Assembly (NCBI RefSeq): GCF_001677475.2
Contig: NZ_CP015229.1
From: Escherichia coli
GTDB taxonomy: Bacteria; Pseudomonadota; Gammaproteobacteria; Enterobacterales; Enterobacteriaceae
Reading direction: 5' to 3' (one strand)
Length of the DNA: 64,000 nucleotides
In this document: positions 27,469 through 30,577 of the stretch, piece after piece
How the letters are laid out: every line of letters begins with the position of its first letter
How positions within the stretch are numbered: the first letter of the stretch is position 1
Program-made: the position numbers and the translations under genes
Notes under the pieces: generated by a model
Database searches by the model: none
The model's input: only the letters and a program-made list of their open reading frames with translations
What the model was told of the DNA's origin: nothing

Positions 27469-27540
27469 TTGCCAAAGTAAAACAGTGTAAAAGGTATGTA
27501 ACAGACCATTGACTGGCTGAATGGTCTGTCATACTTTGTT

Positions 27541-27751
27541 ACCTGCAAAGGGGAGTAACTTCATTGCCGGTCGATCGTCATTACGATGTGTGAAAAACCA
27601 CATCCGGTCACCGGGCAACCCGAAAGGAATACGCAGACGTATTCCTTTTTTGTTGTAAGTGAGACCTTGCCGGAAGGCGAGGTCTATGCATAAAAAGCAG
27701 CGGCTGACGTCTTCCGACGTTGGCCGTTTTTTTTATGTGTAAGGAACTTCT
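27541..27751 (+). ncRNA. alx 5' leader: yybP-ykoY-type (Mn-responsive / pH-responsive element) riboswitch with internal terminator-like hairpins
   Basis: AAAGGGGAGTAAC at ~27548 and GTGAGACC at ~27659; hairpin GGAATACG...CGTATTCC + T-run at ~27625-27652; sits directly upstream of alx. Confidence 0.5.
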
Positions 27752-28717
27752 ATGAATACTGTCGGCACGCCGTTGCTATGGGGCGGATTCGCTGTTGTTG
27801 TCGCCATTATGCTGGCTATCGACCTGTTGTTGCAGGGGCGTCGTGGGGCACATGCCATGACCATGAAACAGGCTGCGGCCTGGTCGCTGGTCTGGGTGAC
27901 GCTGTCGTTACTGTTTAACGCCGCTTTCTGGTGGTATCTGGTGCAGACACAGGGGCGCGAAGTCGCTGACCCGCAGGCGCTGGCCTTCCTCACGGGTTAT
28001 CTGATTGAGAAATCGCTGGCGGTCGATAACGTCTTCGTCTGGTTAATGTTGTTCAGCTATTTCTCTGTTCCGGCGGCATTACAGCGCCGCGTGCTGGTGT
28101 ATGGCGTGCTCGGGGCGATTGTTCTGCGTACCGTCATGATCTTCACCGGTAGCTGGCTGATTTCGCAGTTCGACTGGATCCTGTATATCTTCGGTGCCTT
28201 CCTGCTGTTTACCGGCGTGAAAATGGCGCTGGCCCATGAAGATGAATCAGGCATTGGCGACAAGCCGCTGGTGCGTTGGCTGCGCGGTCATTTGCGCATG
28301 ACCGACACCATAGACAACGAGCATTTCTTTGTGCGTAAGAATGGCTTGCTGTATGCCACGCCGCTGATGCTGGTGCTGATTCTGGTGGAATTGAGCGACG
28401 TGATTTTCGCCGTGGATAGCATCCCGGCTATCTTCGCCGTGACCACTGACCCGTTCATTGTGCTGACCTCAAACCTGTTTGCGATCCTCGGCCTGCGTGC
28501 GATGTATTTCCTGCTGGCGGGCGTAGCAGAGCGTTTCTCGATGCTCAAATATGGCCTGGCGGTGATTCTGGTGTTTATCGGTATCAAGATGCTGATTGTC
28601 GACTTCTACCATATTCCGATCGCCGTTTCGCTGGGCGTGGTGTTTGGCATTCTGGTGATGACATTTATTATCAACGCCTGGGTGAATTATCGGCATGATA
28701 AGCAGCGGGGAGAATGA
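27752..28717 (+). CDS. alx: TerC-family inner-membrane protein Alx
   Basis: ORF in track; matches K-12 Alx (YgjT). Confidence 0.9.
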
Positions 28718-28825
28718 TTCGCTGTATATTAAGCCATTACTAGAGATAACTCATTCCAGACAAAGGTGAGCTATTAATTATGTAATCGGCTTATAGCTCT
28801 TTACAAAAAGACCGCACTGGTGTTG

Positions 28826-29040
28826 GTGGCGTCAAAATCGCCGAAGCGTTCCCTGGAGGCCGGGGCGACGCGCATGGATGCGCGGCGAGGGCGCATCTTA
28901 CAGGGACGTTCCCTTGCGCCCGACCCGGTAGCCGCAAGGGATAAGCTGAGGGAACCGCGCAGCGGCGATTTTGTTCGCCAGAGCCTGGGGGTGCAGGGGG
29001 CGGCGGCGATTGGCCGCCCCCTGCGCGCTCCCTGCGCCAG
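28826..29040. other. GC-rich structured intergenic element: ~30-bp imperfect inverted repeat flanking ~90 bp, then a perfect 11-bp-stem hairpin; unclassified
   Basis: GTCAAAATCGCCGAAGCGTTCCCTGG (28831-28856) pairs with GAGGGAACCGCGCAGCGGCGATTTTG (28947-28973); CAGGGGGCGGC...GCCGCCCCCTG at 28994-29023. Confidence 0.3.
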
Positions 29041-29332
29041 TGACTTTATATGGCATAGCACATTAAAGGAGCGCAACCGTTCTCATATTCCAAATAGTTT
29101 TGCCCATATGTTATCTAATCAGCCTTAGTAGCCAGTCCTTCCCTCTGTTTATGTCAAATAAATGTAACCATTAAGTTGCAAAATATGACCTCTCTTTAAA
29201 ATCCAGCATTTTTCGCTTCCCGAAGCTGTAACTTTCCTTATACTCGACCTTGCAAACACTTTGTTACATCCTGAAAGATGCGTCGACAGAACGCACCAGG
29301 GATGTGCGACAACACAATGAAAGGATCGAAAA

Positions 29333-30577
29333 ATGACTACGCAACGTTCACCGGGGCTATTCCGGCGTCTGGCTCATGGCAGCCTGGTAAAACAAATCCT
29401 GGTCGGCCTTGTTCTGGGGATTCTTCTGGCATGGATCTCAAAACCCGCGGCGGAAGCTGTTGGTCTGTTAGGTACTTTGTTCGTCGGCGCACTGAAAGCC
29501 GTTGCCCCCATCCTGGTGTTGATGCTGGTGATGGCATCTATTGCTAACCACCAGCACGGGCAGAAAACCAATATCCGCCCTATTTTGTTCCTCTATCTGC
29601 TGGGTACCTTCTCTGCTGCTCTGGCCGCAGTCGTTTTCAGCTTCGCCTTCCCTTCTACCCTGCACTTGTCCAGTAGCGCGGGTGATATTTCGCCGCCGTC
29701 AGGCATTGTCGAAGTGATGCGCGGGCTGGTAATGAGCATGGTTTCCAACCCCATCGACGCGCTGCTGAAAGGTAACTACATCGGGATCCTGGTGTGGGCA
29801 ATTGGCCTCGGTTTCGCACTGCGTCACGGTAACGAGACCACCAAAAACCTGGTCAACGATATGTCGAATGCCGTCACCTTTATGGTGAAACTGGTCATTC
29901 GCTTCGCACCGATCGGTATTTTTGGGCTGGTATCTTCTACCCTGGCAACCACCGGTTTCTCCACACTGTGGGGCTACGCGCAACTGTTGGTCGTGCTGGT
30001 TGGCTGTATGTTACTGGTGGCGCTGGTGGTTAACCCATTGCTGGTGTGGTGGAAAATTCGTCGTAACCCGTTCCCGCTGGTGCTGCTGTGCCTGCGCGAA
30101 AGCGGCGTGTACTCCTTCTTCACCCGCAGCTCTGCGGCGAACATTCCGGTGAATATGGCGCTGTGCGAAAAGCTGAATCTGGATCGCGATACCTATTCCG
30201 TTTCTATTCCGCTGGGAGCCACCATCAATATGGCGGGCGCAGCAATCACCATTACGGTGTTGACGCTTGCTGCGGTTAATACGCTGGGTATTCCGGTCGA
30301 TCTGCCTACGGCGCTGCTGTTGAGCGTAGTGGCTTCCCTGTGTGCCTGTGGTGCCTCCGGCGTGGCGGGGGGGTCTCTGCTGCTGATCCCACTGGCCTGT
30401 AATATGTTCGGTATTTCGAACGATATCGCCATGCAGGTGGTTGCCGTCGGCTTTATCATCGGCGTATTGCAGGACTCTTGCGAAACCGCGCTGAACTCTT
30501 CAACTGACGTGCTATTCACTGCGGCAGCTTGCCAGGCAGAAGACGATCGTCTGGCAAATAGCGCCCTGCGTAATTAA
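29333..30577 (+). CDS. sstT: Serine/threonine:sodium symporter
   Basis: ORF in track; matches K-12 SstT. Confidence 0.9.

Follow-up and report, generated by a model that had tools for sequence, protein, structure and literature searches.

Rudd gave the first description of the TRIP1 repeat in 1999. Five types of it, present in Escherichia coli in at most about five copies at fixed loci, are distinguished by Li et al. (2024; PMC10888264). Two of these, TRIP1a and TRIP1c, go under the names RRS-lysO and RRS-dusC in the work of Pham, Cox and Goodman on replication risk sequences (RRS) (PMC10287960, PMC11194060), a literature made up of Pham et al. 2023 and 2024 and a 2026 preprint by Kusi-Appauh et al. 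In these papers the RRS are 222-bp GC-rich repeats that form an inverted pair flanking Ter, each member about 650 kb from dif, with a G-quadruplex (G4) motif, GGGGGTGCAGGGGGCGGCGG, in the lagging-strand template both at lysO and at dusC. They stall Pol I, II, III and IV, resulting in post-replication gaps bound by RecA and SSB, and in K-12 they are conditionally essential and affect global supercoiling. Where the RRS were characterised as DNA, a structurally similar motif, TwoAYGGAY (RF01731; Weinberg et al. 2010), has been described as an RNA of unknown function. Here we show that a GC-rich element lying between alx and sstT in a 64,000-nt stretch of E. coli DNA (contig NZ_CP015229.1 of assembly GCF_001677475.2; hereafter the window) is TRIP1d, a member of the TRIP1 family, and we weigh the mechanisms by which it may act.

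Published TRIP1d is 264 bp long, starts 96 bp past the alx stop codon and ends 255 bp before the start of sstT (PMC10888264). The unit in the window reproduces this geometry in its length, in both distances and in its forward orientation, which is that of both genes. A family member is expected to be about 85% or more identical to TRIP1a across a unit of about 264–273 bp; the window unit shares 88.3% identity with K-12 TRIP1a over 264 bp and 87.6–89.8% with other copies, while Li et al. give 89% between TRIP1a and TRIP1d (PMC10888264). There is no material difference between the window copy and published TRIP1d; the GC content of 65.9% stands against a published range of 62–65%, the predicted fold energies are about equal and the closest database copies are one base off in 261. 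The original prediction for this DNA, made from the letters alone, had called the element unclassified and had placed it at 28826–29040. It belongs instead to a known repeat family and is already named, so the label was wrong, and the repeat unit is larger, comprising 264 bp from 28814 to 29077. The predicted extent does come close to the part of the unit that aligns with Klebsiella copies, a part whose length agrees with the published 222-bp RRS unit, although the helix at the tail of the unit, past unit position 226, is likewise kept in Klebsiella. The prediction was right to set the element apart from REP/BIME and ERIC. These repeats (ERIC also known as IRU), together with miniature inverted-repeat transposable elements (MITEs), resemble TRIP1d in being intergenic, palindromic and repeated, but TRIP1d is much longer than REP and is found in E. 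coli as one to five copies at fixed loci, a distinction drawn by description and not by comparison of consensus sequences.

In the copy-number search that had been proposed, BLAST against 5,426 complete E. coli genomes placed TRIP1-family sequence in 5425 of them, at a median of 3–4 places per genome, and the whole TRIP1d allele in 1659 (31%), BL21 derivatives among them. Genomes without a copy at alx–sstT had matches of about 87% identity at lysO–aqpZ or yohP–dusC. K-12 itself carries three family copies of 146–273 bp at other loci, namely TRIP1a (lysO), TRIP1b (putP) and TRIP1c (dusC). There is in addition a putP copy of full length that shares 96% identity with TRIP1d.

The homology extends to the features on which the RRS model is built. 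The window element is homologous to RRS-lysO and RRS-dusC over the whole 222-bp unit, its G4 20-mer is identical to theirs, and all of the hairpins are kept by way of compensatory changes. We put the probability that the element is TRIP1d with a DNA-level mechanism of the RRS type, probably attenuated by its orientation, at roughly 70%. In the proposed mechanism, which draws on experiments with the lysO and dusC paralogues, unwinding at the replication fork would allow the strands to fold at once into a very stable multi-hairpin structure, with the G-rich strand adopting either a G-quadruplex or a 12-bp hairpin (hairpin D). As hairpin D overlaps the G4 motif, the two would be mutually exclusive. 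Such a fold would block the lagging-strand polymerase, leading to re-priming downstream and thereby to a post-replication gap on which SSB and RecA could load. TRIP1d is also a published substrate, 264 bp long, on which homologous recombination with other family copies can act, two TRIP1a/TRIP1d rearrangements having been reported (PMC10888264), and it replaces the terminator-bearing 3′ region of alx found in the K-12-type allele.

Both the RNA and the DNA forms of the unit are predicted to fold unusually well. For the 264-nt unit the minimum free energy comes to −144.1 kcal/mol (z = −5.1) in the RNA form and −86.7 kcal/mol (z = −7.2) in the DNA form, and in neither case did any of 200 shuffled sequences fold as well. 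The span 28826–29040 is 70.7% GC, compared with 34% for 28718–28813 and 40% for 29078–29332. The earlier description of a GC-rich, structured element is thus upheld, as is its account of imperfect inverted repeats, for which a repeat search returned 16-nt arms (28833–28848 and 28958–28973) that are 88% complementary and the family consensus a closing stem, P1, of 19 pairs. The perfect hairpin said to follow these repeats is indeed perfect, although its stem has 12 pairs and not the 11 first counted.

A covariation analysis suggests that this fold has been maintained. Aligning 19 copies from Escherichia species, Pseudocitrobacter and Klebsiella gave an RNAalifold consensus of 76 pairs, in which 98.7% of cells formed standard pairs against a shuffled mean of 94.7% and 17 pairs showed compensatory changes against a shuffled mean of 9.2, neither value being reached in 500 shuffles; as the sequences are kin and the structure was derived from the + strand, these figures are supportive and are not to be read as probabilities. 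Sliding the partners by one to three columns left at most four compensatory pairs. Together with 80–90% identity across genera, the 17 compensatory pairs would indicate purifying selection on the fold. Conservation of this kind between genera also speaks against the suggestion that the element is a recombination scar. Strand preference is consistent throughout, with the + strand folding 9–28 kcal/mol better than the − strand in 16 of 16 copies of a first alignment, and with departures of the G-U type outnumbering those of the A-C type by 72 cells to 6. In the tail helix, pairing is kept from Escherichia to Klebsiella through G-U variants and one compensatory pair, and this pairing would explain the Shine-Dalgarno-like AAGGAG at the 3′ end of the element.

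Within the fold, the element that appears to be conserved is hairpin D and not the G-runs that it contains. Four of its stem pairs show compensatory changes, and in K. aerogenes both G5 runs are interrupted (GGGAG...AGAGGG) while pairing is restored by C-to-T changes on the opposite arm. This reading, which comes from sequence comparison, differs in emphasis from the published G4 model. Pham et al. cite the G4 associated with pilE in Neisseria gonorrhoeae. That motif is also a G-rich structure that triggers a replication gap or break, as proposed for RRS, but it is unrelated in sequence and drives pilin antigenic variation, whereas the G-runs of TRIP1 sit in a conserved hairpin and are not kept in K. 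aerogenes.

Position and orientation are where TRIP1d departs from the canonical pair. On the K-12 map, alx–sstT lies on the + strand at 3.24 Mb, between dif and oriC (near 3.93 Mb) and on the same replichore as RRS-dusC, while the G-rich strand is + for TRIP1a (0.915 Mb) and − for TRIP1c (2.229 Mb). The G4-bearing, G-rich strand in the window is the gene (+) strand. Judged by synteny with K-12, the G-rich strand of TRIP1d would be the leading-strand template, and not the lagging-strand template as at lysO and dusC. The overall GC skew of the window (−0.022) agrees with this assignment, as does the location of the TRIP1d allele on the + strand at 3.58 of 5.05 Mb in a thrL-started genome. Furthermore, about 1.67 Mb, instead of about 650 kb, separate the locus from the point midway between the lysO and dusC RRS, which approximates dif, and the locus is occupied in only about 31% of genomes. 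In the RRS papers, an engineered RRS with its G-rich strand on the leading template gave no RecA/SSB peak in vivo, and in vitro it produced gaps of about 325 nt in about 66% of passages, compared with about 650 nt in about 100% for the canonical orientation. With the G-rich strand on the leading template, it is the weaker C-rich strand that would meet the lagging-strand polymerase, making TRIP1d a weak or occasional gap trigger and not a full RRS. We consider TRIP1d to be, probably, an extra, weak element of the RRS type.

Several points weigh against a DNA-level role of this kind. The replichore assignment comes from synteny with K-12 and assumes a source genome without a large inversion, and under that assignment TRIP1d lies away from the Ter domain, at about 0.69 Mb from oriC, in an orientation that gave no single-stranded DNA (ssDNA) peak in vivo. 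Both canonical RRS are naturally inverted in place, TRIP1a in O157:H7 EC4115 and E69 and TRIP1c in an ST131 strain and Escherichia sp. MOD1-EC7003, so orientation is not strictly conserved and the case for an orientation-dependent DNA role is weakened. Li et al. give counts but no mechanism for such in-place inversions (PMC10888264), and at lysO–aqpZ, the only locus for which an alignment was made (of a K-12-like sequence with EC4115), the differences reach into the unique flanking DNA and the change is no simple flip. Moreover, invariant GGA loops are common to TRIP1 and the AT-rich Psychromonas members of TwoAYGGAY, which makes a model in which anything that folds will serve insufficient and suggests sequence-specific recognition. 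Finally, covariation cannot separate folded ssDNA from RNA.

Replication trouble at these repeats would nonetheless be consistent with the way in which they decay. K-12 TRIP1b at putP and the alx–sstT copy of strain SCPM-O-B-8794 have each, independently, lost the 122–128-nt domain enclosed by P1, and both deletion junctions lie in short G-rich direct repeats. Slippage across a large hairpin would give deletions of this form.

TRIP1d represents a natural extra copy of a recently discovered type of genome-structural DNA that programs post-replication gaps. About 31% of E. coli genomes, BL21 among them, have it at a new position and, judging by synteny, turned the "wrong" way relative to the fork. 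It provides a natural experiment on whether position and orientation matter for RRS, and on whether the hairpins or the G4 are the active feature. It also bears on whether RRS and the orphan TwoAYGGAY "RNA" motif are the same thing. The 17 covarying pairs across Escherichia, Pseudocitrobacter and Klebsiella, and the resemblance of TRIP1 to TwoAYGGAY, go beyond the papers that we found.

That resemblance emerged from the Rfam scan suggested with the original prediction, which was negative at gathering scores, no family being matched at those thresholds anywhere in the 64-kb window, and productive below them. The segment 28821–28986 matched TwoAYGGAY over its full length at 33.1 bits (E = 0.012), short of the gathering score of 43, and the TRIP1 paralogues scored 28.4–31.4 bits. 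In TwoAYGGAY as in TRIP1, a long closing stem, often very long in TwoAYGGAY and of 19 pairs in TRIP1d, encloses two neighbouring hairpins whose loops are of the AUGGAU and ACAGGGAC types, and a perfect hairpin with an 8-nt loop comes after this core; in the second loop, TwoAYGGAY has AYGGAY where TRIP1 has ARGGAY. In the window copy, loop A is AUGGAU, following the AYGGAY pattern, and loop B is AGGGAC, following ARGGAY, with one Klebsiella copy reading ACGGAC. The GGA is invariant in both loops while the adjacent base varies, the base 5′ of it in loop B being G, A, C or deleted. In Weinberg's original alignment, the members from Psychromonas carry the same loops as TRIP1, ACAUGGAUGU and UACAGGGACGUA, as well as ACAGGGAC, and after these comes a perfect hairpin of 13 bp whose loop is 8 nt long.

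An intermediate between the two families is found in Pseudocitrobacter, where the mdlB–glnK spacer holds a TRIP1 copy and a divergent TwoAYGGAY-class element head-to-head, 48 bp apart (L015 1868–2375; L032 5320–5830). Both of these elements comprise a closing stem, two GGA-loop hairpins and then a G-run hairpin. The neighbour of the TRIP1 copy scores 49.2 bits against TwoAYGGAY, above the gathering score, and a covariance model built from the TRIP1 core alone matches this neighbour from end to end, scoring 56.4 bits in L015 and 55.1 bits in L032 (E about 4e-10 to 8e-10, with rough calibration). With profiles agreeing in both directions, the intermediate ties TRIP1 to an accepted member of TwoAYGGAY. 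It is possible, although somewhat short of probable, that the TRIP1/RRS core is a GC-rich enterobacterial branch of TwoAYGGAY, and that selection keeps the GGA-loop hairpins, including the one that overlaps the G4, and not the G-runs. Were this the case, the TwoAYGGAY "RNAs" of Clostridia, Psychromonas and gut metagenomes could be DNA-level gap triggers; alternatively, the RRS phenotypes could involve a structure that a protein recognises, CsrA or some different reader of the loops, instead of just a G-quadruplex. In the literature searched, no paper that mentions TwoAYGGAY concerns TRIP1 or RRS.

These likenesses raise a second reading, in which the element works as RNA. It would be a GC-rich enterobacterial member of TwoAYGGAY, a family that shares the Rfam clan CL00106 with CsrB, and its transcript would make up the 3′ portion of the alx mRNA, in which the two neighbouring hairpins with GGA loops would bind a CsrA dimer or another loop-specific protein and so titrate it or stabilise the transcript. 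Apart from the profile scores and the loops described above, the G-U pairs favour the + strand. The TRIP1 loops resemble the CsrA SELEX consensus, RUACARGGAUGU. Binding by CsrA has been proposed for TwoAYGGAY (PMC4333381). Transcription of the element is also conceivable, as a crude consensus scan found no terminator-like site in the TRIP1d allele between 28600 and 29400, and so none between alx and the element; read-through from alx would transcribe its + strand, which we offer as a lead and not as a finding.

Several lines of evidence are harder to reconcile with an RNA. No TRIP1 copy reaches the Rfam threshold, and those of Klebsiella are without a match at E ≤ 1. Orientation to the neighbouring genes is inconsistent, K-12 TRIP1a and TRIP1b being antisense to the upstream gene and copies flipping in place, and there is neither a conserved promoter inside the repeat nor a U-tract after hairpin D. 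CsrB/CsrC-type small RNAs also present GGA in hairpin loops, as TRIP1d does, but CsrB has about 20 GGA sites, while TRIP1d has only two in loops and no evident promoter or terminator of its own. In the portion of the supplementary files of a K-12 CsrA CLIP and transcriptomics study available to us (PMC5694010), ybjE and dusC are marked "No" in all four yes/no columns and "NS", and those files list no entry with coordinates at either gene. The RRS phenotypes, in addition, were obtained experimentally on DNA templates in vitro. An RNA-level role of the TwoAYGGAY/CsrA type, which answers to the structured sRNA among the options of the original prediction, is a live rival that we rate as rather unlikely, and it is compatible with a DNA role.

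The same terminator scan bears on a further alternative, in which the main role of the element is to form the 3′ end of alx or to insulate transcription, with a very stable RNA structure replacing the intrinsic terminators of the K-12-type allele and setting the level of read-through into sstT. In the K-12-type allele alx is followed by two terminator-like hairpins with T-runs where the TRIP1d allele has none, and the element is co-oriented with both genes, beginning 96 bp past the alx stop. However, hairpin D is not followed by a U-tract, other family members lie in all orientations to their neighbours, and consensus terminator scans of this kind are crude and no evidence of function. The chance that this is what the element is for seems to us very slim.

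The alx–sstT spacer measures 615 bp in the window and 398 bp in K-12, a difference of 217 bp that bears out the earlier estimate of about 200 bp, and the K-12 spacer, as foreseen, lacks the element and holds unrelated sequence. What did not survive is the notion of an added unit. TRIP1d DNA is not a simple insertion into the K-12 spacer, and in the alignment some 430 bp, approximately 28718–29150, is allelic to an unrelated K-12 segment. Three alleles, unrelated or differing by indels, occur at this spacer. In the remaining E. coli genomes the spacer is of the K-12 type, with a span of either 564 or 489 bp, and these two variants differ by one 75-bp unit of an unrelated CCCTCTCCC-type repeat. 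The GC-rich repeat of the K-12 spacer, also found in MS6198, is of the CCCTCTCCC.../GGGAGAGGG type, and its 75-bp unit is present or absent between strains. Outside typical E. coli, the element directly follows alx in Escherichia sp. MOD1-EC7003, and SCPM-O-B-8794, the GTDB representative of a divergent "E. coli" species, keeps both TRIP1d flanks, including 28718–28813, with a 122-nt core deleted. The TRIP1d allele and its flanks are older than the diversification of E. coli.

It could be argued that TRIP1d is a selfish or relic mobile repeat, MITE-like or carried by REP, that has no function here and marks one of several spacer haplotypes. Its presence is polymorphic, at 31% of genomes and among the three spacer alleles, TRIP1 copies invert in place and decay by internal deletion, and fragments of the family occur on a few plasmids. 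The family is also more numerous in Klebsiella, where one K. pneumoniae chromosome has 13 copies, scattered over unrelated intergenic sites. Four Klebsiella copies were examined, and in front of every one stand a REP-like unit and a conserved leader of about 50 nt, which makes the unit repeated there longer and composite. On the other hand, neither a target-site duplication nor a clean empty site could be seen when the alternative alleles were aligned, and these swap about 430 bp for unrelated DNA; the miniature inverted-repeat element that the original prediction had considered is consequently not demonstrable. No transposase is associated with the family, and a phage origin was rejected for want of a match in 50,697 phage records. 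The restriction to at most about five copies at fixed loci in E. coli, the age of the allele with its flanks, the 80–90% conservation across genera with 17 compensatory pairs and the conditional essentiality of the K-12 paralogues all tell against a functionless repeat, which we regard as very unlikely.

Table 1. Positions of TRIP1d, its structural parts and the surrounding features, with matches of the TRIP1-core model in Pseudocitrobacter
Feature	Position	Strand	Remarks
alx CDS	27752..28717	+	321-aa ORF; homologous locus annotated TerC family membrane protein Alx; upstream neighbour, same strand as element
TRIP1d-allele left flank	28718..28813		34% GC; without counterpart in K-12 spacer (alignments with K-12 and MS6198)
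Full TRIP1d unit	28814..29077	+	264 bp, 65.9% GC; + strand is the G-rich, better-folding one; bounds from family alignments
Closing stem P1, 5′ arm	28817..28840	+	19 pairs with 28966–28988; two pairs compensatory across genera
Klebsiella-aligned part	28819..29039	+	Unit positions 6–226; BLAST, 80–82% identity
TwoAYGGAY-like core	28821..28986	+	Rfam RF01731, sub-threshold, model positions 1–168
Hairpin A	28866..28887	+	Loop AUGGAU (28874–28879) invariant in 19/19 aligned copies; three compensatory stem pairs
Hairpin B	28889..28921	+	Loop motif ACAGGGACG (28900–28908); compensatory pairs at alignment columns 84/104 and 89/98
Closing stem P1, 3′ arm	28966..28988	+	Family consensus
RRS G-quadruplex 20-mer GGGGGTGCAGGGGGCGGCGG	28987..29006	+	Exact copy; single match in window, zero expected by chance
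Hairpin D	28993..29024	+	Arms 28993–29004 and 29013–29024; 12 perfect pairs, 8-nt loop
Tail helix	29025..29074	+	GCGCTCCC (29025–29032) pairs with AGGAGCGC (29067–29074) around a variable loop
TRIP1d-allele right flank	29078..29150		K-12 spacer homology restarts near 29150
sstT CDS	29333..30577	+	414-aa ORF, ATG at 29333; downstream neighbour
TRIP1-core model matches	L015 2180–2339; L032 5632–5791		Pseudocitrobacter; cores of the same elements that score 49.2 bits in Rfam

A coding role for the element was also considered and set aside. Behind AAGGAG, where a small ORF or a type I toxin might have been expected, the ORFs are different from copy to copy and the window copy has none. Two ORFs overlap the element (28820–29128, +, 102 aa; 28801–29076, −, 91 aa), but their frames are broken by one-base indels between copies, and they are annotated only sporadically, as "hypothetical protein". 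The RSA repeat, another candidate, was rejected on copy number and size, K-12 being annotated with 6 copies of 150/151 bp as against the 3 copies of 146–273 bp found here. Upstream, alx is known to have a pH- and Mn-responsive leader of the yybP-ykoY type, and its 5′ leader here (27469–27751) gave no Rfam match at gathering thresholds or at E ≤ 10.

An exact 18-mer scan of 100,044 species genomes, with a pattern too strict for Klebsiella or Kluyvera, found the family only in Escherichia and Pseudocitrobacter, along with contaminant contigs and chance matches. Two short contigs, one of 583 bp assigned to Bacillus sp. EB106-08-02-XG196 and one of 432 bp assigned to Pseudobutyrivibrio xylanivorans MZ8, carry E. 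coli putP–TRIP1 DNA at below 1x coverage and look like contamination. In E. coli CT29, and in that genome only, an 82-bp stretch at 924.9 kb matches the 3′ part of the Pseudocitrobacter TwoAYGGAY-class element; it sits in an acquired island beside an IS66 fragment and was rejected as an RRS locus. The Klebsiella copies analysed here, from K. pneumoniae and K. aerogenes, were taken from chromosomes mislabelled as plasmids in a plasmid collection. The PLSDB records CP125156.1, NZ_CP134663.1, NZ_CP141089.1 and NZ_OL790696.1 are chromosomes of 4.8–5.4 Mb that are labelled as plasmids, and several smaller PLSDB records classed as "non-mobilizable" look like chromosome fragments.

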